Source: Myxococcota bacterium (lineage in GTDB: Bacteria > Myxococcota_A > UBA9160 > JAFDDA01). From it: a DNA stretch of 32,000 bases. The DNA lies in contig OZ245817.1 of the NCBI GenBank assembly GCA_965228475.1, positions 4,080,931 through 4,112,930 of the forward strand, in the 5' to 3' direction. Position 1 is the stretch's first letter. Each line of letters opens with the position of its first letter. A program made the translations under genes and the position numbers. The notes beneath the pieces were generated by a model. The model did no database searches. It had not been told where the DNA came from and worked only from the letters and a program-made list of their open reading frames with translations. Below are positions 14,308 to 30,029 of this stretch, in pieces.

Positions 14308-15630
14308 ATGCTGGGCATCCAAGCTGGCGAGGCCCCCGTGAAGACGCCTGAAATCACACGAGGATTGAGACTGGTGGTGGCCCTGGCGTTCACGCTCGCC
14401 ACGGGCTGCGCCTCGAACACCGGGCCCGCTCCGGGCAGCGCCGGTGGCCCGCCCGGCGCCCAGAGCCCGAGCGTCGCGGCCGGCCCGCCCGGCCCCTCCG
14501 CCATGGACCGCAGCACGGCCGCCCTCGAGGGGGCTGTCCTGGGCGCCATGATCGGCACCTGGATGGGCCCGATCGGCGCGGCCGTCGGCGCCGGCGCCTT
14601 CATGCTCTACGGCGCCATGACCGGCCGTGTGATGGGCTCCCCCGGCCCGAACACCGGGCCGCGCAACGAACGCGAGCGCGAGGAAATCCTCGAGGACCAG
14701 ATCGATCAGGAGATGCAGCGCCACGCCTCGCTCGAGTCCGAGATCGAAGCGGAGCTCCGCCGGCAAGAGGAGCTGATGTCGCGCATCGAGCAGGACGAGG
14801 CCATGGCCGAAGCCCTCGGCGACGAGATCGCCCCCGAGCTGAGCCAGGAAGAGATCGCCGAGCACGCCGACGCCCGCGCCGCACCGCTCGCCCCGAAGGA
14901 CCGCGACCTCCCCGAGTACATCTTCGACGTCGACACGATCGAGGTCGCGCGCGGCGAGTGGGGCAACCGCAAGAAGATCGAGGCCACGCGGCGCAGCCTG
15001 GATGCGGACCGTGACGGAAAGCCGGAAGAAGTCCGCTACTTCGACCCCCAGGGCACCTACCTCCGCAAGGAGGAAGACCGCGACTTCGACGGCAAGATCG
15101 ACGCCTGGTCGGTCTTTCGCGGCGGCGAGCTCGCCACACGCGAACTCGACTCCAACGGCGACGGCCAGCGCGACACCTGGGAACACTTCGCGCGCGGCCG
15201 CATGACGGCCCGCGAGGTCGACCGCAACAACGACGGCAAGCGCGACGCCTTCTTCGAGTACCAGAACGACTCGCTCGTCCGCGAGCGTCACGACACCAAC
15301 TACGACGGCACGATCGACTTCCGCGTCACCTACGCGAACCGCCGGCGCGTGAAGGCGGAAGAGGACGCGAACAAGGACGGGAAGATCGACACCTGGACGA
15401 GCTACATAGCCGTCGAGGACCGCGAGGCCGTCGACCGGATCGAGCGCGACCAGGCCGGCGACGGCAAGGCCGACACCTTCGAGGTCTACGTCCAGACCGG
15501 CGGGAAGTCCGTCCTCCAGAAGAAGGAAGAGGACAAGAACGCCGACGGCGAGATCGACATCACCTCGATCTACGAGAACGGCAAGCTCGTCCGCCGGGAG
15601 ATCAGCGACCCGGCGATGATGCCGCTCTAG
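14308..15630 (+). CDS. Lipoprotein with glycine-zipper segment, coiled coil and eight EF-hand-like DxDxDG repeats
   Basis: Lipobox-compatible LATGC, then a Gly/Pro-rich linker. A glycine-zipper-like stretch follows (GAVLGAMIGTWMGPIGAAVGAGAFMLYGAMTG), then a Glu/Arg coiled coil. After that come eight approximately 22-aa repeats, D-x-[DN]-x-DG-x-x-[DE]-x-[WF]-x-x-[FY]. In-frame GTG 14338 (GAGG 5 nt upstream) is an equally plausible start. Confidence 0.75.
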   Translation: MLGIQAGEAPVKTPEITRGLRLVVALAFTLATGCASNTGPAPGSAGGPPGAQSPSVAAGPPGPSAMDRSTAALEGAVLGAMIGTWMGPIGAAVGAGAFMLYGAMTGRVMGSPGPNTGPRNEREREEILEDQIDQEMQRHASLESEIEAELRRQEELMSRIEQDEAMAEALGDEIAPELSQEEIAEHADARAAPLAPKDRDLPEYIFDVDTIEVARGEWGNRKKIEATRRSLDADRDGKPEEVRYFDPQGTYLRKEEDRDFDGKIDAWSVFRGGELATRELDSNGDGQRDTWEHFARGRMTAREVDRNNDGKRDAFFEYQNDSLVRERHDTNYDGTIDFRVTYANRRRVKAEEDANKDGKIDTWTSYIAVEDREAVDRIERDQAGDGKADTFEVYVQTGGKSVLQKKEEDKNADGEIDITSIYENGKLVRREISDPAMMPL

Positions 15631-16256
15631 GCGATCTCCTCGGACAGCCGCTCGGGCGCATCGATCGCGATGTAGCCGCCCTCCAGCCGCACGACGCCAC
15701 CCGCCACCCAATCCCGCAGGTGTTTGTTCACGCTCTCGCGTGAGGCGCACACCATCGAGCCGAGTTCTTCCTGGGAGATCCGGAGATCGATGCGGACGCC
15801 GGAACCGTCGGGCACCCCGAATCGTCTGCGCAGAGCGAGCAGCGTCTTCGCGATCCGCGCCTTCACGTCGAGAAAGGCCTGATCTTCGAGCCGTTCGCCG
15901 AGCGCACGGATCCGGCCGGCGAGCACCTCGAGGAGCCGGAACGCCGAGTCGGGATGGCCGCGGACCAGCGCCGTCAGCTCTCCGCCGTCGAGGACCACCA
16001 GCTCGCAGTCCTCGAGCGCCGTCGCCGTCGCGGTCCGACGGCCTCCAGAGAGGGCCGAGAGCTCGCCGACGAGATCGCCGGGGCCGGCGATCCCGAACAC
16101 GAATTCCTGGCCCCGGGGCGAAACCGCGCCCAACCGCAGCCGACCCCGCCGCACCACGTAGACCTCGTGGCCTAGCTGCCCCTTGTGAAAGAGCTCGTCG
16201 CGGGCTTTCAGGGCGAGCGTTCGGCTGGGCACCTCGGGACCTCCGGGATCGAGCAT
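15627..16256 (-). CDS. Crp/Fnr-family cyclic-nucleotide-binding transcriptional regulator (distal copy)
   Basis: cNMP-binding beta-barrel with the phosphate-binding cassette GELSALSGGRRTATA, and a C-terminal HTH ISQEELGSMVCASRESVNKHL (compare E. coli CRP GCSRETVGR). The N-terminus is unusually short. In-frame GTG 16232 has a better SD (GGAGG, 7-nt spacing) than ATG 16256. Confidence 0.85.
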   Translation of the reverse strand: MLDPGGPEVPSRTLALKARDELFHKGQLGHEVYVVRRGRLRLGAVSPRGQEFVFGIAGPGDLVGELSALSGGRRTATATALEDCELVVLDGGELTALVRGHPDSAFRLLEVLAGRIRALGERLEDQAFLDVKARIAKTLLALRRRFGVPDGSGVRIDLRISQEELGSMVCASRESVNKHLRDWVAGGVVRLEGGYIAIDAPERLSEEIA

Positions 16257-16278
16257 GGAGCCCGGCGGCCGGAGACGC

Positions 16279-16294
16279 CGTGAAGCACTTCACA
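16279..16294. promoter_or_regulatory. CRP-type palindrome (cGTGA-N6-TCACA) upstream of the distal crp gene
   Basis: CGTGAAGCACTTCACA has 9 of 10 consensus half-site bases and the same AGCACT spacer as the box at 24203. Its centre is 30.5 nt from ATG 16256 and 54.5 nt from GTG 16232. It overlaps the TGA stop (16290-16292) of the upstream crp gene. Confidence 0.6.
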
Positions 16295-17027
16295 GAGTCG
16301 GGGTTTCGCTCGTGCGCCCGGCGCGCGCCGGATCCGCCAGGGCCTCGAGCGGCCCCCGGTCGTGGACGCGCACGACGCCCGACTCGCTCGAGAGCCAGCC
16401 TTCCTGCTCGAAGGCACGCATCTGCTTGTTCACCGCCTCCCGGGTCGCCCCGACGAGGTTGCCGAGCTCGGTCTGGGACAGCTTGAGGTCGATGCGCAGG
16501 CCGTCGGACTCCTCGACGCCGTACTCGTCCGCCAGGGCGAGCAGGGAGCGGGCCAGGCGGTTCGGGAGGTTGCGGAAGAGCGTGTCCTCCATGACCTCGC
16601 TCACGTGAGTGAGGCGCTCGGCCAGGGACGACATGCAGGCGATGGCGATCTCGGGCTGGCGCCGCATCACGTCGAGGAGGTCCCGCCGGTGGATCACGAG
16701 GAGCTCCGCGGGCGTCAGCGCGGTCACGGTCGCGGTGCGGCGGCCGCCGAAGAGCATCGCGACCTCCCCGATGACCTCGCCTTCCTTCATGATCGAGAAG
16801 GTGATCTCCCGGCCGTCCTCGGAGGTCGACGCTGCCTTGAGGCTGCCGCGAAGGACGGCGTAGGCCTCGTTTCCCTCGTCTCCCTTGTGAAAGAGCTCCT
16901 CGCGGGCGGCCAGCTTCTTGCGGACGGTCCGCTCGGCGAGCAGGTCGAGTTCGGCCTCGCCGAGCGACGCGAACACGAAGATCTGCGAAAGCAGCTGACG
17001 GCGATCGACGACGGCGGTGTCGCTCAT
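16290..17027 (-). CDS. Crp/Fnr-family cyclic-nucleotide-binding transcriptional regulator (proximal copy)
   Basis: I chose ATG 17027 (MSDTAVVDRRQLLSQIFVFASL); the ORF-track extension to 17354 is Arg/Ala-rich off-frame-type sequence. Phosphate-binding cassette is GEVAMLFGGRRTATV and the HTH is LSQTELGNLVGATREAVNKQM. The ATG overlaps the upstream stop as ATGA. Confidence 0.85.
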   Translation of the reverse strand: MSDTAVVDRRQLLSQIFVFASLGEAELDLLAERTVRKKLAAREELFHKGDEGNEAYAVLRGSLKAASTSEDGREITFSIMKEGEVIGEVAMLFGGRRTATVTALTPAELLVIHRRDLLDVMRRQPEIAIACMSSLAERLTHVSEVMEDTLFRNLPNRLARSLLALADEYGVEESDGLRIDLKLSQTELGNLVGATREAVNKQMRAFEQEGWLSSESGVVRVHDRGPLEALADPARAGRTSETPTL

Positions 17028-17434
17028 GGCCCGTCCAGACGATGGTTCCGCCCGGTCACGAGGTAGGCCACGCCCGCCACGAGCAGGCCGATGGCCGTCG
17101 CACTGGAGAGGTTCACGCCGAAGCACGGCCAGCCGCACTCGGGCGTGGCGAGCGAGATGAACAGCACCGGAAAGATCACGAGCGCGCCGACGAGCGGCCC
17201 GCGCAGCCACCACGGCTCGGGCCAGGTCGAGACCCCGACCCAGAAGCCGACGAGCATCCGCGCCGTGTAGAACGCCCAGACCATGCGCGAGCCGTCGAGG
17301 TAGTGCGTGTCGAACTTGTAGGGGATCGGGCCGTGCAGATACTGCGGCAGCCACCCGAGTGCGATGCCGAGCACTGCGCAGAGTGCGACGTACGGGACGT
17401 TCCGGCGCGCGCCATCCTGCGAGAACTCAGACAA
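17024..17434 (-). CDS. Small integral membrane protein (about 4 TM helices), function unknown
   Basis: Four hydrophobic segments: VALCAVLGIALGWL, MVWAFYTARMLVGFWVGV, LVGALVIFPVLFISLA and ATAIGLLVAGVAYLV. There is a PECGWPC loop. TTG 17434 has GGGAGGAA about 5 nt upstream and overlaps the methyltransferase stop by 8 nt. The stop overlaps the crp ATG (ATGA). Confidence 0.6.
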   Translation of the reverse strand: MSEFSQDGARRNVPYVALCAVLGIALGWLPQYLHGPIPYKFDTHYLDGSRMVWAFYTARMLVGFWVGVSTWPEPWWLRGPLVGALVIFPVLFISLATPECGWPCFGVNLSSATAIGLLVAGVAYLVTGRNHRLDGP

Positions 17435-18566
17435 GCGTTTCCTCCCGAGGCGCCCGGCCGGCGACGAGATGATACGCCTGGGTCCGGTTGGTCTCGAGGA
17501 ACGCCTCCGAGGCACGCAGGAAGACCCGGAAGGCCCGGACCGACTCCTCGCCGAAGCGTTCCGCCAGGGCCTTCTCTTCCCGCTCCAGCGCGTCCGCCCA
17601 GTCGCGACAGGTCCATGCGTAGGAGATCGTGTCGTCGACGAGTTCGTGCACGTTGAAGCCCTGGGCGACGAGCGCTTCGAGGAGCTTCGGCACGTTCACG
17701 TAGCGGGCGGTGCCCGGGAAGATGTAGCGGCCGAGGAACGCGCCGACCTGGAACCCGCTTCGCTCGCTGCAGAAGTCCGCCCAGAGGCGGCCGTCGTCGC
17801 GGAGGTGGGTCGCGAGGAAGCGGGCGGCATAGGCGTAGTCGGTGAAGTGCTCGAAGGTTCCCATGAAGACCGCGCCGTCGAAGGGCATGGCGGGCTCGAA
17901 GTCGAGCAGGTCGATCCGTTCGACGCAGCAGGGGAGCGAACGCTCGCGAATCAATCCTTCGACGAAACGCCGCTGTTCCTCCGAGAGCGTGATGCCGTGC
18001 ACCTCGATTCCGCGGAGTCCGGCGAATTCGAGGAACGAGCCCCAGCCGCAGCCCATGTCGAGCACACGCATGCCCGGTTCGAGCCCGAGCGTCTCGATGG
18101 CGCGCTCGAACTTGCGGGCCTGGGCCTCCTCGGGAAGATCGTCTTCGGACGCGTAGAGCCCGTGCGAGTAGGAGCGCCAGCGCTCGAACCAGGGCAGGAA
18201 GAACTCGGGCGGGCGATCGTAGTGGAAGGCCACGGACTCGCGCTGCAGGCTGCGGCGGTCGCGGAGCAGGAGCTGTGCCGCGAAGCGCAGCCGCTCGTAG
18301 AGCGAGGGGTCCGGGGCGATCACCTCGGTGAGTCGGATGACTTCGCGGAAGTCCCCTTCGACGTCGATCGCGCCGTGCAGATAGGCCTCGGCGACGCCGA
18401 GCAGGTCCTGCCGCTCGAGGGCGCAGAGCGCCTCGTCTTCGTGGAACACGACCCGCGTTCGCTCCGGGTCCGGGCCGACCCGGTGGAGCACCTCGCTCTC
18501 GTTCTCGAGGGTGAGGTTGGCGCCGGCCTCCGCGAGGGCGTCGATGAGCGGGACGAGGGCGTTCAC
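17427..18566 (-). CDS. Cyclopropane-fatty-acyl-phospholipid synthase family SAM-dependent methyltransferase
   Basis: FHYDRPPEFF, SYSHGLY, LEEAQARKFE and the SAM motif I MRVLDMGCGWGSF are typical of the CMAS/CFA-synthase family. GTG 18566 forms a GTGA overlap with the giant-gene stop. The ORF-track extension to 19649 is off-frame-type sequence inside the giant gene. Confidence 0.8.
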   Translation of the reverse strand: MNALVPLIDALAEAGANLTLENESEVLHRVGPDPERTRVVFHEDEALCALERQDLLGVAEAYLHGAIDVEGDFREVIRLTEVIAPDPSLYERLRFAAQLLLRDRRSLQRESVAFHYDRPPEFFLPWFERWRSYSHGLYASEDDLPEEAQARKFERAIETLGLEPGMRVLDMGCGWGSFLEFAGLRGIEVHGITLSEEQRRFVEGLIRERSLPCCVERIDLLDFEPAMPFDGAVFMGTFEHFTDYAYAARFLATHLRDDGRLWADFCSERSGFQVGAFLGRYIFPGTARYVNVPKLLEALVAQGFNVHELVDDTISYAWTCRDWADALEREEKALAERFGEESVRAFRVFLRASEAFLETNRTQAYHLVAGRAPREETLV

Positions 18567-21500
18567 GCGGCGCTCTTCGACCCCTCCGGGCGCGTGCGCC
18601 GGCGCCGCAGGCGCGCCAGGCCGAGCAGGCCGATCAGCTCGGGGCCGAGCCCGCAGCCACCGGCCTTTTCCTTCGCAACGTAGGGGTTCCCGTTGCACTG
18701 CGGGTCGGGCAGGCCGAAGCCGCCGCCGTCGTAGTCCGTGAAGCCGTCGGCGTCGTTGTCGAGACCGTCGCTGCAGGCCGGGTCTTCCCGGGCGCCGTCG
18801 GGGGCGATGCAGCCCGGATCGCCACCGACGTCGGAGCCGTAGTCGCCGTCGTTGTCCCGGCCGTCGTCGCACACCAGCAGGTTCGAGCGCTCGCTCGTGT
18901 CCGCACCGTCGTCGCAGCCGGCGTCGGCGAGATCCACGAGGCCGTCGCCGTCGTTGTCGATGCCGTCGCTGCAGGCGTTGCCGCCTCCGACGTAGGCGCA
19001 AAGAGAATCGCAGACGCCATCGATGCCGTTCTGCGAACCGTGGTCGCAGCCTTCTCCGTACTCCTGGATGCCGTTGCCGCAGCTCTGGCGGTCGCAGGCA
19101 TCGCCGATGCCGTCGCCATCGACGTCGAGCTGATCGCCGTTGGCGACGTCCTGGCAGTTGTCGATCGGGTCGGCGAGGCCGTCGCCGTCCGCGTCGGCCG
19201 CGGTGGCGATGGTCGTCGTGCCGAGGTCGCAGGTGGCACCTTCGTTGCACTGAGAGTCGTTGTCGCAGGAGCCGTCGCCGTCGGAGCAGCGGCCGCGCGT
19301 CACGTAGCGCTGGCGGCCGTCCTCCGCCTCCTCGAGCGTGGCGAAGAGCGCCTCCGGGTTCAGACCGTCGTCGACGCAGACCTCGGTGGCCGCGCACTCG
19401 GCGTCGGTCAGGCACGGCCCGGTGATGTCCTTGCAGGTGAAGGACCCCGGAACGCCGAGCACGGGGGAGCAGAACTCGTCCCCGGGGCACGAGTCCGGAA
19501 CCTCGGGGTTGCAGCCCGAGCCGGTGTCGAAGAGGCAGCCACCCGGCGGGAAGTAGCATTCGCCTCCGCCCGAGCAGTCGGCATTGCTCGCACAGCCCGC
19601 CGCCGTGACGGTGCAGATGCCCGCGACCGCTCCACCGACGATGTCGCACGCGTCCTCCATCGATCCGCCGGCGATCAACGCCTCCGGGTTGAAGTGCTGG
19701 ATGACGAGGTTCAACGGCCCGCCGCTCTGGTCGAGGTCGTTCCCGCCCTGCTGGGCCTCGAGCGTGAGGAAGCTCACCTTCGTGCCGAGGACGCGGTACG
19801 GGATGCGCGGATCACAGGCTTCCACCGGGCACGGAATGGCGGCCTGCATGCCGTTGTAGGTGCGGCCCGTGGACAGGTCCATGACGTGCATGACCGAATC
19901 GAAGAGATCGCCGTCCGCCACGCCTCCCACGATCGGCGGCACGACGCCGTTCAGGTTGACCCCCTCCCCTTCTTCGCTCACCCGGAACGCGATGATGTCC
20001 TCTCCGAGGACGAAGTCGTCGACGGCGGGGTTGAAGCGAGCCACGCCCTGGTCGTCGAGGAAGGCGACGGGCTGTCCGCTGGCGTCGTAGACGTGCAACA
20101 CGCGGTCGAGCTGATCGCCGTCTCCGTTCAAGGCGGCTCCCTGGTCCGCCTCCGGCACGGTGAAGGCGACGAAGCCTCCGACGGTCTGGACGTCGTCCGC
20201 GGCCAGGAAAAGGTTCTGCCAGGTCCCGCTCGTTCCCGTCGCCGTGTCGTTCAGATGGACGACGAGGTCGTCCATGTCGCCATCGCCGTTCAGGAAGAGG
20301 CCTTCCTGCGCCTCCGAGGCCAGGGCTGCAACGACCTGACTCGAAACCGCGACCTGATCGGCGGCCAGGGCCAGGTTCACCGCGGGGCCGGCCTGGCGGT
20401 TGCGGTAGAGCTGGACGACGAGGTCGTCGAAGTCGCCGTCGCCGTTGTGGTCGACTCCAGCGCCCGCCGCGGACTCGTCGGCCAGGAAGGCCGCGTTGCC
20501 ATCGCGCACGCTGACGGCCTCGGCGCTGCCGAAGCGAAGGACGGTGAAGGGGCCGACCGCCTGCGTGTCCGCGACCGCGAGCACCGTGTCGCGCGAGTCC
20601 CCGTCGCCGTTCAGGTCGTTGCTCGCGCCGTCGAGCGCGGGTTTGCGGAGGTAGCGGCCGCCCGGAAGCAGCTTGGCGTGGAAGACCGTCTCGGCGTCCC
20701 CCTGGATCTGCCCGGAAGTGTCGGGCTGATTGCCGAGTCCGTCGGGGAAAAACGAGAAGATCCTGGTGACTCGGTCCACGAACTGCGGAGCGAAGCTCCC
20801 GGAAGGATGGCCACCGAAGTAGAAGGGCTGGACGAGTGCGTAGCGGCCGTCCGAAGAGAGCGTGCCTCCCTGGCTGGGCGTGTCGAAGCCCAGCGTGGAG
20901 AGCCCGACCTCCTCGCGCGACACCGTCCCCGGCTCGTCGAAGATGCCGTCGTCGTCGCCGTCCCGATCGTAGATGACCGCCAACCCGCCGGGCTGCCAGC
21001 CCATGATCACGCGGCCGTCGTCGCTCATGTCCGTCGGGATGATCCACTGGGTGTCGAGCAGGGAGGGCGAGACGAACTCGGCTTCGCCGCTCTCGTCGTA
21101 GATTCCGTCGCCATCGAGGTCTCGGTCGAGGATGAAGGCGTCGCTGCGCAGGTTCGTATCCCCCGCGATGAGGTTCGACGCCGTCGAGCGGAAGAGAACG
21201 TAACGGCCGTCGCGAGACATCTCCGCCGGCGTGAACAGGTCGTCGTTGGGCGCCACGCCCACCCCGAGCACGGCGTCACTCGCCCGATAGCTCGCGATCG
21301 CCCCGGGCTCGTCGTAGATCCCGTCTTCGTCGGTGTCCCGGTCGTGGATGACGAGCTCGCTGTCCAGGAACGCGTCGCCAGCGATCATGTTCGTCGCGCT
21401 GGAGGCGAAGACCACGAACCTTCCGTCGTCGCTCATGCGCGGACGCGAGGAGCCGTTGTTGGCCTGGACACCGGCCGAGCTCACGCTCACCCGGACGTTC

Positions 21501-24148
21501 GCCACGAAACCCGGCTCGTCGTAGATCCCGTCCTCGTCGGTGTCCCGGTCGTGGATGAACACGTCGTCGCTGCCGTTCGTGTCGCCCGCGATCAGGTTGC
21601 TCGCGTCCGAGGAAAAGGCCACGTAGCGGCCGTCGGCGCTGATGTCTCCGATGTGGTGGTCCCCGGCGACGGGGTTGCCCAGGGTGTCGAGGCTCACGGT
21701 GATCCGGACGAAGCCTTCGTCGAGGATGCCGTCGAGATCGTCGTCCCTGTCGTAGACCTCGAGGAACGAGCTCGTCTCGTTCTGGTAGGCGATCCAGCGC
21801 TGGTTGCTCGAAAAGCGCAGCTCGTCGCCGAGGAACGAACGGTTGGCGACCTGCCAGCTTGCACCCCCTCGCTCCGACTCGCGAAAGAAGACCAGGCCGT
21901 CGGACACCGCCAGGGTCTGCCCGTTGACGTCCGCGATCGGATCGACTGCGAGATCGAGGCCGGCGGTCAGCTCGGTCGGAGCGGGCGTTTCGATCCGGAA
22001 GACTCGCAGGAGCGTGTCCAGACGGTCGCCGTCGCCGTTCAACCCGCCCAAGACCGACGGGGACTCCCATCGCTCCGCCTCGAGGAAGGCGGCGATGTCG
22101 TCCTCGATCGCCAGCGGCGGGAAACGATAGATCCCGTCCCGGACGCGGGCAGAGGCCCGGCCGGTTCCGCCGACCCGGCGCGCGATGTCCGCGGAATCCG
22201 CACTGTCGTCGATCTTGAGGTCGATGATCGTCTCGTCCGTCGAGTCGCCGTCGAGGTTGAGATCGGTGGACTCGAGCCGTTCCGAGCGCACGAACGCGAA
22301 CAGGTCGTCGGTCTGGGCCAGCGACTCGATCGCGACGGGGTTCAGGGCCTCGGCGGTGTACTCGGCGCTCGCCAGGAGGATCGGGCCGGTTCCGCCCGAG
22401 TAGCGATCGCTGAAGTCGAAGTTGCTCGGACCACACTCCCCGCCGGGACAGGCGCCATCCCCGGTGCACGCGACCCCGTCGTTGACGCCACCCCGGCAGA
22501 GCGCCTGGACGCAGGTCGAGGACGGACACTCGAAGTCGGCGATACAGGCCAGCCCGCCCCGGGTCCCGGCGGCGCACTCGCGGAACTCGGGGCTCCGGCG
22601 CAGCACGCGGATCACGCCGATCTCGGCATCCGTGGACCCGAACAGCGTCGTGTCGGTGCTCGTGGGGTTGGAGAGTGGGTTGAACAGCGGATCGACTCGT
22701 AGCCCCTTCTGCGAGAGCGACTGCAGGAAACGCGCGCCGGGAATCTCGATCGGCGCTCCCGGCGTCTGGTTCGCCTCGGGCGGCGCCCCAGTGAACGCAG
22801 CGATCGAGCTCTGGATCTGGACGAGGCGTGGAATGGGCAGGGTTCGTGGCTGGACGAGAACGCCCCGCCAGTCCACCGGAATGACCAGGTTGCCCTCGGC
22901 GTCCGTCGTGAACTGGACGTCGGCGCCGCTGTTGTTGCAGCTCACCGACGGGTTCCCGGCGGTGCAGATGTCTTGAAAATCATTGGGCGCGGGCAGCGCC
23001 GTCACGCCGGCGAACTGCTCGTGGGCGTTCTCCGGTCCCGCCTCACAGGTCCCGTCGGAGGCGTAGATCCGGTCGATGCAGGCAACGAGGCCGCCTGGCG
23101 CACCTGGCCCCCCGCACTCGGTCGTCGCGAGGGCGCACGGCAGTGCGGCGCCGCTTGGAGAGACCGCAAGGGTCGTCGGGCCCACGAAAGCGGTATCCGG
23201 AAAAGCGAAGGAGATGGCATCGGCCTGGACGCTCGGCGACAGGTCGTCGCGGCAGGTCGCAGTCCCGCCGCCCAGACTCGCGTTGCAGGCGGCGACCTGA
23301 CTGACGAATGCGGTGCAGTCCCCACCGGGCCCCGGGATGATCACGGCGTTCGCCGGACCCGAGGGCGGCTCGAAGAGGACCGTCGTCGTGGCGGGGCTCG
23401 CCGAATCGTGCAGGGTGAAGTTGTCGATCGCCCACCAGTCGTTGGCCGCCTGCTTGAGCTCGGCCAGAATTCGAAGCTCGTCCACGTCGGCAAGGAGTGC
23501 AGCCCAGCTCCCCGAAACGAGCTGCCAGTTCCCGGTCGGCCCCGCGCTCGAGATCGGGATGTCGAAGCCGCTGCCCCATTGCTCGAAGGGGATGGCCGAG
23601 ATCTCGGCCTGGTCGGCCTGGTACTCGGCGACGCCTCCGGGGCCTTCGATGCGGATCAGCGCGACCGGGGCCGTGAGGTACGGGCCGGCATCGAACCCGG
23701 TCCAGTGCTCCCACGAGATCCGGTTCACGCCTCGCGCCAGCCAATCGCCGAGGTACTGCGACGGCGCGAGCAGGCTCGCCACGTCGCCAGCGCTTCCGTC
23801 GCCGCCGAACAGCACGCGCCCGGGCGGAGGGTTCCTTCCGGCGTTGAAGAAGAAGGCGTGCGTCCCGAACGTCGCCCAGGCTTCCAAGCCGCCTGACTCG
23901 AAATCGCTCAGCGTGGCGGCCGAGCCGAAGCTCGTACCCGATTCGCACCCCGCCGGGTCGAGGGCGATGCGAACCGGGTCACCGGGGCTCGCGAACACCC
24001 GGTTCACGCTTCCCGCGGCGCCGCGAAACTCGGTCTCCGGCTGGGGAATGACGTCGCAGTACGAGGCAGCGGTGCTCGGCAGGAGCGCCGAGGCCAGGAC
24101 GGCCAGGGCAACGATCGCAAGTGAACCCGCGCGGCAGGAGATCTTCAT
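18563..24148 (-). CDS. Giant secreted acidic Ca-binding-repeat / Cys-rich surface protein, paralog A (1861 aa)
   Basis: ATG 24148 (MKISCRAGSLAIVALAVLASALLPSTAAS/YCDV) has GAGGGA 10 nt upstream. After the signal peptide comes a lectin/CBM-like module ending in DNFTL, then Cys-rich segments. Next are five PD40/TolB-like blades (S.DGR.V.F.S.A.NLIAGDTN), each followed by DRDxDxDGI[YF]DE. LNGDGDxxDxV[LV]H repeats follow, then thrombospondin type-3 repeats (DADGDGLADPIDNCQDVANGDQLDVDGDGIGDACD). A Myxococcus-type Cys-rich repeat (CGNGIQEYGEGCDHG...C) and three C.DG.DNDGDG modules come next. The C-terminal tail is GGCGLGPELIGLLGLARLRRRR. Confidence 0.85.
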   Translation of the reverse strand: MKISCRAGSLAIVALAVLASALLPSTAASYCDVIPQPETEFRGAAGSVNRVFASPGDPVRIALDPAGCESGTSFGSAATLSDFESGGLEAWATFGTHAFFFNAGRNPPPGRVLFGGDGSAGDVASLLAPSQYLGDWLARGVNRISWEHWTGFDAGPYLTAPVALIRIEGPGGVAEYQADQAEISAIPFEQWGSGFDIPISSAGPTGNWQLVSGSWAALLADVDELRILAELKQAANDWWAIDNFTLHDSASPATTTVLFEPPSGPANAVIIPGPGGDCTAFVSQVAACNASLGGGTATCRDDLSPSVQADAISFAFPDTAFVGPTTLAVSPSGAALPCALATTECGGPGAPGGLVACIDRIYASDGTCEAGPENAHEQFAGVTALPAPNDFQDICTAGNPSVSCNNSGADVQFTTDAEGNLVIPVDWRGVLVQPRTLPIPRLVQIQSSIAAFTGAPPEANQTPGAPIEIPGARFLQSLSQKGLRVDPLFNPLSNPTSTDTTLFGSTDAEIGVIRVLRRSPEFRECAAGTRGGLACIADFECPSSTCVQALCRGGVNDGVACTGDGACPGGECGPSNFDFSDRYSGGTGPILLASAEYTAEALNPVAIESLAQTDDLFAFVRSERLESTDLNLDGDSTDETIIDLKIDDSADSADIARRVGGTGRASARVRDGIYRFPPLAIEDDIAAFLEAERWESPSVLGGLNGDGDRLDTLLRVFRIETPAPTELTAGLDLAVDPIADVNGQTLAVSDGLVFFRESERGGASWQVANRSFLGDELRFSSNQRWIAYQNETSSFLEVYDRDDDLDGILDEGFVRITVSLDTLGNPVAGDHHIGDISADGRYVAFSSDASNLIAGDTNGSDDVFIHDRDTDEDGIYDEPGFVANVRVSVSSAGVQANNGSSRPRMSDDGRFVVFASSATNMIAGDAFLDSELVIHDRDTDEDGIYDEPGAIASYRASDAVLGVGVAPNDDLFTPAEMSRDGRYVLFRSTASNLIAGDTNLRSDAFILDRDLDGDGIYDESGEAEFVSPSLLDTQWIIPTDMSDDGRVIMGWQPGGLAVIYDRDGDDDGIFDEPGTVSREEVGLSTLGFDTPSQGGTLSSDGRYALVQPFYFGGHPSGSFAPQFVDRVTRIFSFFPDGLGNQPDTSGQIQGDAETVFHAKLLPGGRYLRKPALDGASNDLNGDGDSRDTVLAVADTQAVGPFTVLRFGSAEAVSVRDGNAAFLADESAAGAGVDHNGDGDFDDLVVQLYRNRQAGPAVNLALAADQVAVSSQVVAALASEAQEGLFLNGDGDMDDLVVHLNDTATGTSGTWQNLFLAADDVQTVGGFVAFTVPEADQGAALNGDGDQLDRVLHVYDASGQPVAFLDDQGVARFNPAVDDFVLGEDIIAFRVSEEGEGVNLNGVVPPIVGGVADGDLFDSVMHVMDLSTGRTYNGMQAAIPCPVEACDPRIPYRVLGTKVSFLTLEAQQGGNDLDQSGGPLNLVIQHFNPEALIAGGSMEDACDIVGGAVAGICTVTAAGCASNADCSGGGECYFPPGGCLFDTGSGCNPEVPDSCPGDEFCSPVLGVPGSFTCKDITGPCLTDAECAATEVCVDDGLNPEALFATLEEAEDGRQRYVTRGRCSDGDGSCDNDSQCNEGATCDLGTTTIATAADADGDGLADPIDNCQDVANGDQLDVDGDGIGDACDRQSCGNGIQEYGEGCDHGSQNGIDGVCDSLCAYVGGGNACSDGIDNDGDGLVDLADAGCDDGADTSERSNLLVCDDGRDNDGDYGSDVGGDPGCIAPDGAREDPACSDGLDNDADGFTDYDGGGFGLPDPQCNGNPYVAKEKAGGCGLGPELIGLLGLARLRRRRTRPEGSKSAA

Positions 24149-24202
24149 CGTCAGTGCGTCCCTCATCATGGACGGAGCTTCCGCAATCCTGGCCGCCGGC
24201 TC

Positions 24203-24218
24203 TGTGAAGCACTTCACA
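24203..24218. promoter_or_regulatory. Perfect CRP-type palindrome TGTGA-N6-TCACA upstream of giant paralog A
   Basis: TGTGAAGCACTTCACA extends to the 18-bp perfect palindrome CTGTGAAGCACTTCACAG. Its centre is 62.5 nt upstream of ATG 24148, in the 208-nt gap between the two giant genes. Confidence 0.65.
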
Positions 24219-24226
24219 GGAAAGAT

Positions 24227-24248
24227 CGAAAAGTGGGGCGCGAGCCCC
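24227..24248 (-). terminator. Weak candidate terminator after giant paralog B
   Basis: On the minus strand, GGGGC-tcgc-GCCCC (5-bp stem) is followed by ACTTTTCGATCTTTCC. It lies between the paralog B stop and the CRP box of paralog A. The stem is short and the homologous position upstream of paralog B folds differently. Confidence 0.3.
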
Positions 24249-24309: not shown

Positions 24310-24360
24310 TCAGCGCTTTTGGCCGACGCGGGCCCCGATGAGCGGGACGAGGGCGTTCAC
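24310..24360 (-). pseudogene. Duplication scar: 16-codon remnant of the methyltransferase 5' end
   Basis: Nt 24336-24366 repeat nt 18542-18572 almost exactly (cgatgagcgggacgagggcgttcacgcgg). This preserves the GTGA stop/start overlap after paralog B. The remnant reads VNALVPLIGARVGQKR*; its first 8 residues are identical to the methyltransferase N-terminus VNALVPLIDAL. Confidence 0.65.
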
Positions 24361-27300
24361 GCGGCGCTCTTCGACCCCTCCGGGTGCATGCGTCGGCGCC
24401 GCAGGCGCGCCAGGGCGAGCAGTCCGATCAGCTCGGGGCCGAGCCCGCAGCCCGTGCCTTCCTTGTTCACCGAAGCGTTCGGGCATTGCGGGTCCGGATC
24501 GCTGAAGCCACCGCCGTCGAAATCGGTGAAGCCGTCGCCGTCGTTGTCCAGACCGTCGCTGCAGGCGGGATCCTCGCGAAGCCCGCCCGGGAGGAGGCAG
24601 CCCGGGTCACCCCCGACGTCCGCACGGTAGTCCCCGTCGTTGTCCCGGCCGTCGTCGCACACCATCACGTTCGTGCGCTCGCTCGCGTCGGCCGCGTCGT
24701 CGCAACCCGGATCGATCAGATCCACCCGGCCATCGCCGTCGTTGTCGATGCCATCGTTGCACGCGGTTCCGGCGCCCTCGTAGGCGCAGGCCGCGTCGCA
24801 CACGCCGTCGATCCCGTTCTGGGCGCCGTGGTCGCACCCCTCGCCGTACTCCTGGACCCCGTTCCCGCACACCTCGCGGTCGCAGGCATCCCCGATGCCG
24901 TCGCCATCGATGTCTAGCTGGTCGCCGTTGGCGACGTCCTGGCAGTTGTCGATGGGGTCGGCGAGACCGTCGCCGTCGGCGTCGGCCGCGGTGGCAATCA
25001 CGAGGACGTCGAGGTCGCAGGTCGCACCCGCGTTGCACTGGGCATCGCTATCGCAAGACCCATCCCCGTCCGAGCAACGGCCCCGGGTCACGTAGCGCTG
25101 GCGGCCATCCTCTTCCTCGCGGATCGAGGCGAAGAGTTGCTCCGGGTTCGACTGGTCCGCGACGCAAACCTCGGATGCGGAGCACTCATCGTCCGTCAAG
25201 CACGGGCCGGTGAATTCCTGGCAGGTGAACGTTCCCGGAGAACCAGGCTGAGGTGCACAGAACTGACTACCGCTGCAAGTCACGGGGTTCTCCGGTGCAC
25301 AGATCGTCCCGGTGTCGGAGAGGCAGCCGCCGGGTGGGAAGTAACAGGTGCTCCCTCCGGTGCAGTCGAGATCGCTCGCGCAGCCTTCGCCCGTCGCGGT
25401 GCAGAACCCCCCGATGGCTCCGCCGAGGATGTCGCACGCGTCTCCCATCGGCGCCCCAGCAGCCAAGGCACCGGCGTTGAAGTGCTGGAGCACGAGGCTC
25501 AGAGGCCCCCCGCTCTGGTCCAGGTCGTTTGTCCCCTGCTGCGCCTCGAGGGTGAGGAAGGTGACCTTGTCGCCCAGAACGCGGTAGGGGACACGCGGAT
25601 CGCAGGCTTCGACCGGGCACGGAATCGCCGACTGGTTCGAGTTGTAGGTGCGGCCGGTCGCCAGGTCCATCACGTGGATCACGGCGTCCAGCAGGTCGGC
25701 GTCGGCGACCCCACCGGGAATAGGCGGAACCACGCCGTTGAGATTGACGCCCTCCCCCGCCTCACTGACCCGAAAGGCGATGATCTGCTCACCCAGGACG
25801 AAATCCTCGACTGCGGGGTTGAAGCGCGGTGCGCCAGTTTCGTCGAGGAAGAGAACGGGCTGGCCGGCCCCATCGTAGACGTGCAGCACGCGGTCGAGCT
25901 GATCACCGTCGCCGTTCAGCGCGGCACCTTGGTCAGCCTCCGGGACGGTGAATGCGACGTAGTCACCCCGGGCCTGAACGTCGTCCGCCGCCAGGAAGAG
26001 ACTCTGCCAGGTCGCATCGGTGCCGGTTGCCGTGTCGTTCAGGTGGACGACGAAGTCGTCCATGTCGGCATCGCCGTTGAGGAACAGGCCTTCGCCGGCC
26101 TCGGAGACCAGAGCTGCGACCCACGCGTCCGAAACCGCGACCTGCGATGCCGCCAGGCCGAGGTTGACGGGACTCCCGACCTGCCGGTTCCTCCACAGGT
26201 GGACGACCGAGTCGTCGAAGTCGCTATCGCCATTGAGATCGAGGACCGGATCGGCGGCTTCGTCGCGGAGCCAGACGGCCGTCCCGTCCGCAATCTGCAC
26301 GTCCTCGCCCGGGCCAAGGAAGGCCGCGGCTGGCATCGCGGCCTGGGTGTCGAGAACCGAGAGCAGCACGTCCTCGGCGTCCCCGTCGGAGTTCAGGTCG
26401 GCACCGAGATCGAAGCGATCGACCGTCGAGATCATCAGCGTATCGTTGTCGTTGAAGGGCGCGATGGTGTCCCGCACCACGATGCTGGTGGCATCCGCCG
26501 AGACGGGCATCATCCAGGGCCCATCGGCCAGACCCAGGACCAGCGCGTTCCCCCGGAGGCCGGTCTCGAAATCGGCGGTCTCGATCCCGAAGCGGGTGAA
26601 GCCGACCCGTCGTCCCGATGGATCGAGGCCCAACGCTTGATCGTCGACGACGCCGAGATCCACGATGTCGATGCCGTCCGATTCGTCGAAGACACCGTCC
26701 TCGTCCGCGTCGCGGTCGACGACGATCGCAGCGACGCACGAGGTGAAGGGACACTCACCGTTCGCGAGGAAGCTCACGAAGCGCCCGTCGTCGGAGACGT
26801 CTGTGAGCTCGACGACGTTGCTCACCCCGGGAAGGGGCATGATCGAGGACACGATGGTCGCGGCGGTGATCGTCCCTGGCTCGTCCAACAACCCGTCGTC
26901 GTCGGAGTCGCGGTCGAAGACGACCACTTCCGCGTTCACGTTGAGGAAGGCCGCGATGAATCGACCATCCGGCGTCATCTTGAGCGGCCGATTCGTGGTC
27001 GGCAGACCCAGGCCGGCCTCCGTGCCGAGGTCGATCACGACGTTCGGCGGAGCGATCTCATCGTAGATCCCGTCGCCATCGGGGTCTCGATCGGTGACGA
27101 AGACTCCACCGACGAATCCGCCGCCAACCTCGTTTCCGCGCAGGGCGGCGACGTGGCGCCCATCGGACGAGATCTGCGGAAACACGGTCGCGAAGATCGG
27201 CACCGCGAAGTCGAGCAGCGTGGTCGTCGGCAGCCCGGGGCCGGGCCCCTCGTCGAAGATGCCGTCCTCGTCGGGGTCCCGGTCTCGCACGTAGACGTCG

Positions 27301-29978
27301 AAGTTCCCGTCGACGTCGCCCGGCCCGAGGGATCGCGTCGCGAGAGCGAGATGGCGCCCGTCGTCACTCAGGTCTGCGCCGCCGAAGGTGTAGATGGGGA
27401 ACGGGTCGCAGATGCCGATGCAGCCGATCTCTGCCCCGGTGTCGGAGAGGCTTTGCCTCGTGATCTCGGTGGCGCCGGCCTCGTCCAGGATGCCGTCCGC
27501 GTCGGTGTCGCGATCCAGCACGAAGTGATCGGGGTCGAAGTTGGTGTCCCCAGCGACCAGGTTGTCGGCATCGCTCTCGAAGATCAGGAATCGACCATCG
27601 GGCGTGATGTCCCCCGGGAAGGTCATCGAGTTCGGAGCCGGTTCGGGCGACAGCACGACGGTGCTCCGGACCGCCGAGTCGAGCTCCGAGCTGCGGTAGA
27701 AGAGCAGACCGTCAGAAAGGCGTAGCGGCGCGTCTGCCACCTCCGGGAGGGCGTCGAGTGCCGGGGGCGTGCCCGTCACGAGCGCGACGGGAGACCCAGC
27801 CTCCAGCCGGAAGGCGCGGAGTACGCCATCGACCGTGTCTCCGTCGAGAGTGGAGTCGGAATCGCCCTCGCCGTACTCGGACTCGACCATCGCCAGGACG
27901 TCACCTTCGACGTCGAAGGCCGGGAAGCGGTAGGGGAACACGCGGACCCGCGTGCTTGCACGCCCCGCGGCGCCCGGAGCGCCGATCTCGACGACCTCGC
28001 CCGTTTCGGCGTCGACCATCGAGACGATCGTGGTGTCGTCCTGGTCGCCGTCCAGGTTGAGGTCTGCCGACTCGAGGGGCTCGGACCGGACGAACATGAA
28101 CAGATCGTCGTTGGCGACGAGGCCATCGATCGCTGCCGGGTTCGCTGCCTCGGCCGTGTAGTCGACGCTCGACAGCAGGACCGGGCCCGTCCCCCCCGCG
28201 GAGTAGCGATCGCTGAAGTCGAAGTTCGAGGGTCCGCACTCCCCGCCCGGGCAGGCGCCGTCGCCCGAGCAGACCAACCCGTCCCGGCTTCCGCCGCGGC
28301 AGCGCGCCCGGACGCAGGTCGAAGCCGGGCACTCGAAGTCCGCGATGCAGGCCAGAGCGCCTCGCGGACCACCGGCACACTCCTTGAACTCAGGACTCCG
28401 GCGAAGAACCCGGATCACTCCGATCTCGGCGTCCGTGGAGCCGAACAGGGTGGTGTCGGAACTCTGGGGGTCGGAAATCGGGTTGAACAGCGGATCGACC
28501 CGCAGCCCTTTCTGGGAAAGCGACTGCAGGAAGCGCAACCCGGGTACCTGGATGGGCGCACCGAGTGTCTGATTGACCTCCGGTGGGGTGCCCGTGAACG
28601 CGGCTACGGAGGTACTGACGCTCACGAGCCGGGGAATGGGCAGGGTCCGGGGCTGAACGAGGACCCCGCGCCAGTCCACCGGCACGACGACGTTGCCCTC
28701 TGCATCGGTCGTGAACTGGACGTCGACACCGCTGTTGTTGCAGCTGACGGAAGGATTGGTTGCGGTGCAGATGTCCTGGAAGTCGTTGGGTGCGGGAAGC
28801 GCCGTCAGCCCGGCGAACTGTGGGTGGGCGTTCGCGGCGTCGGTCTCACAGGTCCCGTCCTGCGCGTAGATCTCGTCCGTACACGCGATGAGACCGGCCG
28901 CGGGGCCGAGGTCCGCGCAGCGGTTCGTTGCCAGTTCGCACGGCAACGGACCGCCATCGAAGGTCACCGCGACGGAGACGGGACCGGCGAAGGACGTTGC
29001 CGGGAAGTCCAGAGTCAGCCGATCCGTCGTCGCCGTGATCGCCGGATCCTCGACGCAGGTGGGCATCGGCCCGCCGAGCTCGGCGCCGCAAGCCGCCAGC
29101 TCTGCGGCCATGGCGGCGCAACCCCCGGCGACGGGAGTGACCACCACGGCGTTCGAGGGTCCGGCGGGCGGCTCGAAGACGAAGGTCACCACGTTGGGCG
29201 TGCTCGTCGATTCTTGGAGCGTCAGGTTGTCGATGCCGTAGGAATCGCATGAAGCGTCGCCCAGCTCGCCGAGGATGAGGACGCTGCTGACGTTCGAGAG
29301 CACCTGGTCCCACGTCTCGGCGCCCGCCGCGAGGCTCCAACCGGGCGGCGGACTGCTGCCCGGCGCGACGGGAATGCTGAAGCTCCCCCAGCTCCCGACG
29401 GGAATCGCGTCGATCTCGGCCTGTGAGGGCTCGTACTGGTAGGTGGTTCCAGCTCCGGAAAGGACTCGAACGAGCGGGATCGGCACCGTCAGACGGGCGC
29501 CTCCGCAAAGACTCACGATCTGGTGGTCCCACGCAATGCCGGTGACACCACGCGCGATCCAGTCGCCGTCCCAGCTCGAGGGCGCGCTGACACCGGCGTC
29601 GGTCGTCGGTGCGATGTCCTGGCCGAACACATGGCCATCGGGGTTGCCACCGGGCGATTGCCAGAAGAACAGGTCGTGGAAGCCGCTCACCAACCAGCCC
29701 TCGAGATCCGCCGCGAACGGGCTGACCAGCGGGCTGGGCATGCTGTTCGGGAAACTCGTGCCCGCCTCGCAGCCGGCGGGGGCATCGTCGAGCGAAACCA
29801 CGAGTGGATCGCCGGCGCTCGCGTACACGCGGTTCAGGCTTCCGACGGCGCCGCGGAACTCGGTCTCGGGTTGGGGAATGACGTCGCAATACGACACGGC
29901 GGGGGTCGGCTGGAGGACGAGGACCAGGGCGACCGCCACGGCCGCCCGAAGAGAGGTGGTGCGAACGGAGATCTTCAT
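24357..29978 (-). CDS. Giant secreted acidic Ca-binding-repeat / Cys-rich surface protein, paralog B (1873 aa)
   Basis: ATG 29978 (MKISVRTTSLRAAVAVALVLVLQPTPAVS/YCDV) has GAGGGA 7 nt upstream. It has the same module order as paralog A. The N-terminal about 650 aa and C-terminal about 650 aa align colinearly with many identical blocks. The central blade region has diverged. The tail is GCGLGPELIGLLALARLRRRR. Confidence 0.85.
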   Translation of the reverse strand: MKISVRTTSLRAAVAVALVLVLQPTPAVSYCDVIPQPETEFRGAVGSLNRVYASAGDPLVVSLDDAPAGCEAGTSFPNSMPSPLVSPFAADLEGWLVSGFHDLFFWQSPGGNPDGHVFGQDIAPTTDAGVSAPSSWDGDWIARGVTGIAWDHQIVSLCGGARLTVPIPLVRVLSGAGTTYQYEPSQAEIDAIPVGSWGSFSIPVAPGSSPPPGWSLAAGAETWDQVLSNVSSVLILGELGDASCDSYGIDNLTLQESTSTPNVVTFVFEPPAGPSNAVVVTPVAGGCAAMAAELAACGAELGGPMPTCVEDPAITATTDRLTLDFPATSFAGPVSVAVTFDGGPLPCELATNRCADLGPAAGLIACTDEIYAQDGTCETDAANAHPQFAGLTALPAPNDFQDICTATNPSVSCNNSGVDVQFTTDAEGNVVVPVDWRGVLVQPRTLPIPRLVSVSTSVAAFTGTPPEVNQTLGAPIQVPGLRFLQSLSQKGLRVDPLFNPISDPQSSDTTLFGSTDAEIGVIRVLRRSPEFKECAGGPRGALACIADFECPASTCVRARCRGGSRDGLVCSGDGACPGGECGPSNFDFSDRYSAGGTGPVLLSSVDYTAEAANPAAIDGLVANDDLFMFVRSEPLESADLNLDGDQDDTTIVSMVDAETGEVVEIGAPGAAGRASTRVRVFPYRFPAFDVEGDVLAMVESEYGEGDSDSTLDGDTVDGVLRAFRLEAGSPVALVTGTPPALDALPEVADAPLRLSDGLLFYRSSELDSAVRSTVVLSPEPAPNSMTFPGDITPDGRFLIFESDADNLVAGDTNFDPDHFVLDRDTDADGILDEAGATEITRQSLSDTGAEIGCIGICDPFPIYTFGGADLSDDGRHLALATRSLGPGDVDGNFDVYVRDRDPDEDGIFDEGPGPGLPTTTLLDFAVPIFATVFPQISSDGRHVAALRGNEVGGGFVGGVFVTDRDPDGDGIYDEIAPPNVVIDLGTEAGLGLPTTNRPLKMTPDGRFIAAFLNVNAEVVVFDRDSDDDGLLDEPGTITAATIVSSIMPLPGVSNVVELTDVSDDGRFVSFLANGECPFTSCVAAIVVDRDADEDGVFDESDGIDIVDLGVVDDQALGLDPSGRRVGFTRFGIETADFETGLRGNALVLGLADGPWMMPVSADATSIVVRDTIAPFNDNDTLMISTVDRFDLGADLNSDGDAEDVLLSVLDTQAAMPAAAFLGPGEDVQIADGTAVWLRDEAADPVLDLNGDSDFDDSVVHLWRNRQVGSPVNLGLAASQVAVSDAWVAALVSEAGEGLFLNGDADMDDFVVHLNDTATGTDATWQSLFLAADDVQARGDYVAFTVPEADQGAALNGDGDQLDRVLHVYDGAGQPVLFLDETGAPRFNPAVEDFVLGEQIIAFRVSEAGEGVNLNGVVPPIPGGVADADLLDAVIHVMDLATGRTYNSNQSAIPCPVEACDPRVPYRVLGDKVTFLTLEAQQGTNDLDQSGGPLSLVLQHFNAGALAAGAPMGDACDILGGAIGGFCTATGEGCASDLDCTGGSTCYFPPGGCLSDTGTICAPENPVTCSGSQFCAPQPGSPGTFTCQEFTGPCLTDDECSASEVCVADQSNPEQLFASIREEEDGRQRYVTRGRCSDGDGSCDSDAQCNAGATCDLDVLVIATAADADGDGLADPIDNCQDVANGDQLDIDGDGIGDACDREVCGNGVQEYGEGCDHGAQNGIDGVCDAACAYEGAGTACNDGIDNDGDGRVDLIDPGCDDAADASERTNVMVCDDGRDNDGDYRADVGGDPGCLLPGGLREDPACSDGLDNDGDGFTDFDGGGFSDPDPQCPNASVNKEGTGCGLGPELIGLLALARLRRRRMHPEGSKSAA

Positions 29979-30029
29979 GGTTGCGTCCCTCGTCATGGAC
30001 GGAGCTTCCGCGATCTTCGCCGGTAGCTC

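Follow-up and report, generated by a model that had tools for sequence, protein, structure and literature searches.

A predicted cyclic-nucleotide-controlled envelope locus built around an orphan four-helix membrane protein family of Candidatus Binatia

The 32,000-nucleotide (nt) stretch of contig OZ245817.1 analyzed here (assembly GCA_965228475.1, positions 4,080,931 to 4,112,930; hereafter the window) carries on its minus strand, in this order, a gene for a class III cyclase-STAND ATPase fusion, two giant genes (giant B and giant A), a gene for a CMAS-family methyltransferase (MT), a gene for a small protein with four transmembrane (TM) helices (4TM) and two genes for CRP-type regulators (crp1 and crp2), and we lean towards reading it as the distal half of an envelope locus under cyclic-nucleotide control, from an uncultured Candidatus Binatia bacterium. 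In the mechanism that we propose, a signal would act on the cyclase-STAND protein to produce cAMP or cGMP, Crp1 and/or Crp2 would bind the nucleotide and then three predicted operators, and Crp would activate giant B, a giant A-MT-4TM-crp1 unit and crp2. Because crp1 and crp2 would be among the targets, the regulation would be positive autoregulation. The output would be a huge secreted, calcium-binding surface protein made jointly with membrane-lipid tailoring, the latter being the task of a non-canonical CMAS methyltransferase and of 4TM, its closely coupled partner. With the cyclase next to the giants, the Crp pair and the operators, the locus would encode a nucleotide source, two receptors, three operators and their cargo. 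Within the locus, no description was found for the module centered on the orphan 4TM family, which is restricted to Binatia.

Gene packing, Crp regulators and predicted operators

The main features of the window are as follows (aa, amino acids; ORF, open reading frame).

30130..32000, minus strand: 3' part of a gene that continues past the window end, covering the AAA/TPR region of a double class-III cyclase/AAA_16 STAND ATPase/TPR protein of ~1482 aa
30030..30045: predicted CRP-type operator B, read on the minus strand as TGTGAAGTGGTTCACA, 33 nt before the ATG of giant B (29996)
24357..29996, minus strand: giant B, 1879 aa (1873 aa from ATG 29978), secreted, paralogue of giant A (ORF list, alignment)
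24336..24360, minus strand: duplication scar, in which the first 25 nt of the MT gene, GTGAACGCCCTCGTCCCGCTCATCG, GTGA overlap included, are repeated after the giant B stop
24235..24248, minus strand: between giant B and operator A, terminator-like hairpin GGGGCTCGCGCCCC with a T-rich tail after it
24203..24218: predicted CRP-type operator A, TGTGAAGTGCTTCACA, 33 nt before the ATG of giant A (24169)
18563..24169, minus strand: giant A, 1868-aa secreted calcium-binding repeat protein whose C-terminal region is Cys-rich and whose tail reads CGLGPELIGLL...RRRR (ORF list, repeats)
17427..18566, minus strand: MT, CMAS-family S-adenosylmethionine (SAM) methyltransferase, 379 aa, with full-length cyclopropane fatty acid (CFA) synthase architecture and His266 replaced (PF02353)
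17024..17434, minus strand: 4TM, 136 aa, with invariant C19, HGPIPxK, R59, R78, C100-x3-C104 and N108 (homologue alignment, structure prediction)
16290..17027, minus strand: Crp1, 245 aa, CRP/GlxR-type cyclic-nucleotide (cNMP)-binding regulator (Pfam, structural relatives)
16279..16294: predicted CRP-type operator C, TGTGAAGTGCTTCACg, across the crp1 stop codon and upstream of crp2
15627..16256, minus strand: Crp2, 209 aa from ATG, or 201 aa from GTG 16232 (ORF list, Pfam)

Crp1 and Crp2 are bona fide CRP-type regulators by their domains, phosphate-binding cassette and recognition helix, as a first-pass annotation had claimed. Both score above the cutoffs of PF00027 cNMP_binding (77 and 72 bits) and PF13545 HTH_Crp_2 (59 and 54 bits), they share 43% identity, and their best solved relatives are Mycobacterium tuberculosis CRP (Rv3676) and Corynebacterium glutamicum GlxR (E ~1e-29). 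The cassette (GE...RTA) is kept in Crp1 as IGEVAMLFGGRRTAT, aligned with FGELSIFDPGPRTSS of M. tuberculosis CRP, and in Crp2 as VGELSALSGGRRTAT. The recognition helices read TREAVNK in Crp1 and SRESVNK in Crp2, compared with SRETVNK in M. tuberculosis CRP and GlxR and RETVGR in CAP, where R180 and E181 contact TGTGA (PMC10187061). Neither protein reaches the NCBIfam equivalog level (best PRK11753, 93.7 bits vs. a cutoff of 266), and by sequence they are members of the family, not equivalogs of E. coli CRP. A GGAGG lies seven nt upstream of the alternative crp2 start at GTG 16232.

The sites that these regulators would recognize are present. The palindrome GTGAA-N4-TTCAC occurs in the window three times perfectly and once with a single mismatch, where 0.34 are expected, and none of 100 shuffles reached four. 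Perfect CRP-type sites precede both giants and a near-perfect one precedes crp2, which bears out the putative operator proposed earlier: the full TGTGA-N6-TCACA is found at two operators, and 15 of its 16 bases at the third. The fourth near-palindrome, GTGAAGCGCTTCGC (504-517, one mismatch), is inside a coding region far from the locus and could be a further Crp target or a chance match. Related sites occur in close relatives (loci carry our L numbers), namely a perfect TGTGAAGTATTTCACA between the cyclase-STAND gene and the giant in L063, cGTGA-N6-TCACg upstream of the giant in L061 and TGTGAAGCGCTTCAtA between crp1 and crp2 in L058. The operator, a GTACAAT box and the block GCGGAAGCTCCGTCCATGA are retained in the upstream regions of both giants while the proteins are only 55% identical, which argues for constraint on these regions.

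An nAnnnT hexamer is found at offset 22-27 after each operator (GAAGCT, GAAGCT and CATGCT), and a 22-bp spacing is typical of class-II CRP promoters (PMC10187061). Operators A, B and C thus appear to have class-II geometry, from which Crp would be expected to activate. The transcription start would then coincide with the first base of ATG 24169 and of ATG 29996 and, for crp2, lie near 16245. As the predicted start falls on the A of the ATG in both giants (ATGATGAGG, ATGACGAGG), leaderless mRNAs are possible; alternatively, the giants may be translated from a downstream ATG (24148 or 29978) that is preceded by GAGGGA. Near the start ATGs, one in-frame indel of 3 nt distinguishes giant A from giant B. 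With CRP-type operators before both giants and crp2, an autoregulatory loop is plausible, as the first-pass annotation had suggested, although crp2, which has its own operator, probably lies outside the chain of coupled genes.

That chain can be read directly. The window is ~70% G+C, and real genes are recognizable by a G+C content at third codon positions (GC3) of 0.84-0.96. Every gene from crp2 to giant B, plus the upstream cyclase gene, is on the minus strand, and all three overlaps between stop and start codons described earlier are there. Giant A ends in GCC GCG TGA (18565-18563) and shares GTGA (18566-18563) with the MT start GTG at 18566; MT ends in CTT GTC TGA (17429-17427), and the TTG at 17434 opens 4TM with an 8-nt overlap, TTGTCTGA (17434-17427); 4TM ends in CCA TGA and shares ATGA (17027-17024) with the crp1 ATG. 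A public contig that is 99-100% identical (L057, an ENA assembly contig of 2.45 Mb) carries genes of 1868, 379, 136, 245 and 201 aa with the same boundaries, and a GC3-based gene caller chose the same starts despite its freedom to trim starts against overlaps. Orthologue similarity of MT begins within 3-4 residues of the GTG, with no nearby in-frame start upstream, and in 4TM homologues the invariant Cys19 is preceded by 5-20 residues, with the next in-frame start lying past this Cys. The corresponding junctions in L058 are GTGA (giant/MT), GTGGCTGA (MT/4TM) and ATGA (radical-SAM gene/crp1), and the MT/4TM overlap is 4 nt in L024 and L044. The giant A-MT-4TM-crp1 chain looks translationally coupled, in agreement with the single unit proposed earlier, and crp2 is probably a separate transcription unit because of its own operator and the 33-nt gap after crp1. 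Overlaps of 4 nt between stop and start are frequent in GC-rich operons, and another co-directional pair in the window also overlaps (10008-10011), so that the overlaps represent tight packing and are not a peculiarity in themselves.

A consensus scan for promoters and terminators returned one intragenic promoter-like match (17497-17469) and four terminator-like matches, none above chance. The terminator-like matches were not enriched relative to shuffles, and for the hairpin at 24235-24248 only its position is suggestive. A search of the complete window against Rfam for leader RNA elements gave no match. At the other end of the block, crp2 and a convergent 440-aa gene (14308-15630) end on the palindrome CTAG (15627-15630), where the two TAG stops, one per strand, overlap without an intervening terminator-like hairpin. 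The 440-aa protein has an N-terminal hydrophobic stretch and acidic repeats.

The putative nucleotide source lies immediately upstream. In L057 the complete cyclase gene encodes 1482 aa with a Guanylate_cyc-AAA_16-Guanylate_cyc-AAA_16 arrangement and TPR-like repeats; the window part of the gene matched the kinase/cyclase region 768-951 of TIGR03903 at E 3.8e-22, with a score well below the model cutoff, and a cyclase-STAND homologue in L038 was confirmed by Pfam. Beyond the window end, L057 carries lnt, a gene for apolipoprotein N-acyltransferase (515 aa), divergent from the cyclase-STAND gene, which itself runs directly into giant B. The lnt product contains LNT_N and CN_hydrolase and scores 244.3 bits (L057) and 246.4 bits (L061) against TIGR00546, whose cutoff is 132.9. 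The four-gene framing of the first-pass annotation was therefore incomplete, as the cyclase-STAND gene and lnt lie just beyond giant B.

The Binatia-restricted neighborhood and its cargo

Window proteins were compared with 54 loci from GTDB genomes and six from metagenomes, and neighbors were counted over 58 non-redundant 4TM loci as genes within 10 kb of 4TM. The counts are lower bounds, since many contigs are short.

lnt: at least 24 of 58 loci
Giant homologue: at least 16 of 58 loci, plus seven weak or partial
Cyclase-STAND gene: at least 14 of 58 loci
Locus-type MT: at least 8 of 58 loci, plus four with distant CMAS paralogues
B12-binding radical-SAM/DUF4070 gene: at least 3 of 58 loci
Crp pair: at least 1 of 58 loci

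Gene order and strand vary between genomes while spacing stays tight, with lnt-to-4TM gaps of 11-23 nt in L005, L011 and L030 and 41 nt between giant and 4TM in L053. The 4TM genes linked to the module are scattered over the whole 4TM family tree, which suggests that the linkage is old. The giant-MT-4TM order, for which the first-pass annotation had proposed a synteny survey, recurs in L058-60 and L061, and MT-4TM recurs in L006, L024 and L044. In L058-60, where 4TM is 78% identical, giant, MT, 4TM, the B12 radical-SAM gene, crp1 and crp2 are followed by the same downstream genes as in the window. The 510-aa B12-binding radical-SAM/DUF4070 gene lies between 4TM and crp1 in L058 (4308-5840), and its absence is what distinguishes the window from this arrangement. 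By its junctions in the two arrangements, Crp1 is coupled to whichever gene precedes it. Both L061 and L063 show giant(-MT)-4TM, a convergent lnt and then the radical-SAM gene, without Crp.

The set of four genes put forward earlier does not hold up as a conserved unit, given that a link of Crp to the chain is confined to the window and one close relative. Orthologues of Crp1 with 60-72% identity are located away from the 4TM chain: they stand alone in L095 and L097, and the one in L096 is divergent from a cyclase-AAA_16 gene. A metagenome scan with Crp1 returned relatives of at most 31% identity only. As judged from gene neighborhoods, the Crp-in-operon arrangement with its canonical operators is a recent, local and lineage-specific addition, and the cyclase-giant linkage is broad. 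The conserved unit, by the same comparison, is a neighborhood restricted to Binatia and composed of 4TM, lnt, giant, cyclase-STAND and MT genes, together with the B12 radical-SAM gene in close relatives. The stress that the first-pass annotation laid on the four-gene combination and its overlaps was thus misplaced. Searches of the accessible literature on Binatia/Binatota, and on lnt with radical-SAM and cyclopropane clusters, turned up no account of this module.

At its center is 4TM, whose predicted fold is confident (pLDDT 91.5) and consists of four long helices. By the positive-inside rule, the predicted model would place the N terminus in the cytoplasm and HGPIPxK and C100-x3-C104-x3-N108 at the outer face of the membrane. 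No Pfam or NCBIfam model covers 4TM, and Foldseek against the PDB found no match. DsbB, VKOR and MerC-like proteins, known 4-TM redox or metal membrane families, were considered and rejected because no similarity in sequence or fold was found. A word-indexed search gave 135 family matches, and a profile search of 1.8 billion proteins gave only 72 representative clusters, all from the 4TM family itself; the family is almost confined to metagenome-assembled genomes labelled Candidatus Binatia or bearing older delta-proteobacterial/myxococcal names. The window copy has four extra C-terminal residues, LDGP (17024-17040), possibly the joint of the radical-SAM deletion. In one Binatia genome (L002/L010, 7783-10378), 4TM follows 200 nt after an arsenic set (an ArsR-type helix-turn-helix protein, an SBF/Acr3-type carrier and a low-molecular-weight phosphatase/ArsC-type protein), a neighbor that may be relevant to its invariant Cys and His. 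Upstream of 4TM in L004, L005, L008 and L009, inspection by eye suggests a fusion of glutaminase, a STAS-like region and a cyclic-nucleotide-binding region, which, if correctly read, is a second link of the 4TM family to cNMP signaling.

MT scores 141.9 bits against PF02353 (cutoff 27), and its best PDB relatives are 7qos, 5z9o and 6bqc, the last being E. coli Cfa. Like these three proteins, MT is colinear over its full length including the N-terminal region and has the GCGWG SAM motif, FEH (Glu239) and Tyr317; for a putative N-terminal lipid-binding domain it scores 23 bits against DUF7884, below the cutoff of 27, and the alignments with 5z9o and NF053839 begin near residue 8-36. The bicarbonate ligands of CFA synthase are Glu239, His266 and Tyr317 (PMC11387697). 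Where E. coli Cfa reads LLHTIGS, MT reads LWADFCS (residues ~258-266, window 17740-17800), so that Ala-Asp stands for His-Thr and His266 is replaced, while Glu239 and Tyr317 are kept. (Y/W)ADF is common to all eight module-linked MT orthologues, and the distant CMAS paralogues in L013, L034 and L047 keep the His. The Tyr317 position is Cys in some MT orthologues. Unlike E. coli Cfa, MT lacks the His266 ligand and scores far under the equivalog cutoffs (NF008686, 124.8 vs. 400; CfaB, 131.3 vs. 650), falling below all NCBIfam equivalog cutoffs. The earlier label "CFA-synthase-like" suits the CMAS domain and the full-length architecture but not the catalytic site, and with His266 replaced we do not file MT as a cyclopropane synthase.

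The two giants are colinear, and neither contains a Pfam domain above threshold. Each N terminus has a signal peptidase I (SPase I)-type signal followed by a conserved xC[ND][LVI]IP, which reads YCDVIPQ in giant B. Giant A shows TSP3 (thrombospondin-type-3)/COMP-like calcium-binding repeats, a faint PD40 and, below cutoff, an acidic double-disulfide repeat; PD40-like and FG-GAP-like DxDxDG repeats were seen by eye in the giants. The ends of the two proteins are 80-90% identical while their centers diverge strongly, and the central repeats (residues ~770-1180; 20700-21900 vs. 26400-27700) are nearly unalignable. Diversifying repeats exposed at the surface typically show such a divergent center between conserved flanks. 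Over their last ~400 nt the two genes are 88% identical, far above the protein average, and the copy of the MT start after the giant B stop indicates a tandem duplication, of a unit ending inside the MT gene, as the origin of giants A and B. A word-indexed homologue search with the N-terminal 800 aa gave two matches, the word index being limiting.

Both giants (18563-18660 and 24357-24450) and those of L058, L061 and L063 end in a clade-specific tail, CG[LI]GxEL..LL(hydrophobic)RRRR, which we take to resemble the PEP-CTERM/exosortase and MYXO-CTERM/myxosortase signals in its Cys/Gly/Glu motif, hydrophobic stretch and Arg cluster. As a known CTERM domain it was rejected, because, with E values up to 10 allowed, no NCBIfam CTERM model matched and only WGxxGxxG-CTERM appeared, at E 1.6 and 8.8 bits; moreover, unlike in PEP-CTERM/MYXO-CTERM systems, no exosortase, rhombosortase or CPBP gene was seen near the giants. 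More distant Binatia giants end differently, without the tail and some with dockerin-like ends. A lipobox has the form [LVI][ASTVI][GAS]C without charge at -3 (PROSITE PS51257). The idea that the giants are lipoproteins, which would explain the link with lnt, was rejected since in most homologues the signal ends in AxA↓xC and position -3 is occupied by K, R, H, E or D; the two window copies end in AAS↓YC and AVS↓YC, a better fit to SPase I than to a lipobox.

Elsewhere in the window, a 108-aa ORF (11428-11754; GC3 0.94, unusually low first-position GC of 0.44, Lys/Asn/Ser-rich start) has no Pfam match and is present as a called gene in L001 and L058.

Competing explanations

Several observations weigh against the proposed circuit. 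The -10 candidates GAAGCT and CATGCT are weak, and a better -10-like element, TACAAT, is kept upstream of both giants, ~55 nt upstream of the operators; if TACAAT were the real promoter, the operators would lie in the 5' leader and Crp would repress. Upstream of giant homologues, ~20 more distantly related Binatia loci yielded no CRP-type site, which makes the operator clade-specific, and with no Crp in the distant neighborhoods the regulatory reading cannot be generalized to the module. About 25 of the 58 4TM loci have no module gene within 10 kb, though many contigs are short, and lnt, which passes its equivalog cutoff, may simply be the housekeeping gene. Co-transcription, the start sites and the sign of regulation are what we infer from sequence, as are the identity of the nucleotide and the biochemical functions of the cargo.

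The same parts could therefore operate with the opposite sign, which we consider unlikely. Transcription would begin at the TACAAT ~55 nt upstream, and bound Crp would be a roadblock or repressor, giving negative autoregulation, with the nucleotide either relieving or imposing it; at crp2, Crp would sit over the promoter. CAP bound downstream of a promoter can indeed repress (PMC10187061), and GTACAAT(A/G)CGGCC, kept upstream of both giants, is nearer to TATAAT than the downstream hexamers are. However, the consensus scan gives no -35/-10 pair at the TACAAT position, the crp2 operator has no equivalent TACAAT, and the 22-nt class-II spacing to an nAnnnT hexamer is common to all three sites. 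In L061, good -10-like hexamers (TATTGT and TAGGAT) lie downstream of its site. Activation by Crp remains our preferred sign.

A second explanation, about as doubtful, is that MT and 4TM, with lnt and, in relatives, the B12 radical-SAM protein, make up a lipid or lipoprotein tailoring pathway of their own, to which the giant is a mere promoter-sharing neighbor with no mechanistic tie to the small genes. lnt is the commoner neighbor of 4TM (24 loci, against 16 for giants), MT-4TM and lnt-4TM pairs overlap or lie 11-23 nt apart with no giant between them, a fatty-acid desaturase family joins in four loci, and the giants, with SPase-I-type signals and no lipobox, are not obvious Lnt substrates. 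Nevertheless, the giants have kept to within 10 kb of 4TM despite many rearrangements, and do so over the whole 4TM tree, with giant-to-4TM and giant-to-MT gaps of 36-41 nt in L013 and L053. A bolder proposal, which we rate as a long shot, is that 4TM, with its His/Cys/Asn cluster at the membrane face, is a new envelope enzyme or an obligatory subunit that would work with Lnt, the His266-less MT and, in relatives, the B12 radical-SAM protein to lipidate, tailor or sort the giants, in a Binatia-specific pathway of protein lipidation or surface anchoring under a dedicated cyclase/CRP circuit.

That nothing functional is involved, the overlaps and co-direction reflecting GC-rich compaction and the palindromes chance or generic hairpins, is disfavored as very improbable: 4-nt overlaps are common (another is at 10008-10011) and the palindromes could also fold as RNA hairpins, but no shuffle matched the observed palindrome count, the sites fit the consensus of the adjacent regulator's family and are all intergenic or upstream of start codons, and synteny is kept in many genomes.

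Comparison with known systems

Crp1 resembles M. tuberculosis CRP and GlxR in its cNMP-phosphate motif, its RE[TA]VNK helix and sites of the TGTGA-N6-TCACA type. Its identity to them is only moderate, and whereas they are global regulators encoded alone, Crp1 appears to be translationally coupled to a cargo operon. Mycobacterial class III cyclase-STAND fusions combine a class III cyclase, an AAA_16/STAND ATPase and helical repeats, all of which are found in the protein described here. In contrast to the mycobacterial fusions, its cyclase-ATPase unit is duplicated, its end is TPR-like, it has no DNA-binding domain and its type is syntenic with giant genes in 14 loci.

If the circuit is true, it would be a compact, self-contained second-messenger switch, with sensor-cyclase, two receptors, three operators and cargo within ~20 kb, in a phylum without a cultured member, and would be directly testable by heterologous reconstitution. 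The nearest precedent for its wiring is gcyB-gcyC-cgrA of Rhodospirillum centenum, the cGMP-CRP switch of cyst development, in which cyclase subunits and a CRP-like receptor are encoded in one operon behind a perfect CAP motif, TGTGAactgctTCACA (PMC10187061). Both would form a self-reinforcing loop of nucleotide and receptor behind a CAP-type site. The Binatia locus differs in that its cyclase is a 1482-aa double cyclase-STAND-TPR protein encoded by its own gene upstream, that it has two Crp paralogues and three predicted operators, that its nucleotide may be cAMP or cGMP and that its cargo consists of giant secreted proteins, MT and 4TM. The suggestion of the first-pass annotation that this is not a described system accordingly applies to the cargo module and not to the wiring, which is a variant of a known design and is also like CRP/GlxR regulons generally. 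The cargo is the less ordinary part, with giants that have no Pfam domain above threshold, a CMAS protein without a bicarbonate ligand, lnt and a 4TM family without outside relatives, and its function could reveal new membrane-lipid chemistry or a new handling of very large surface proteins.

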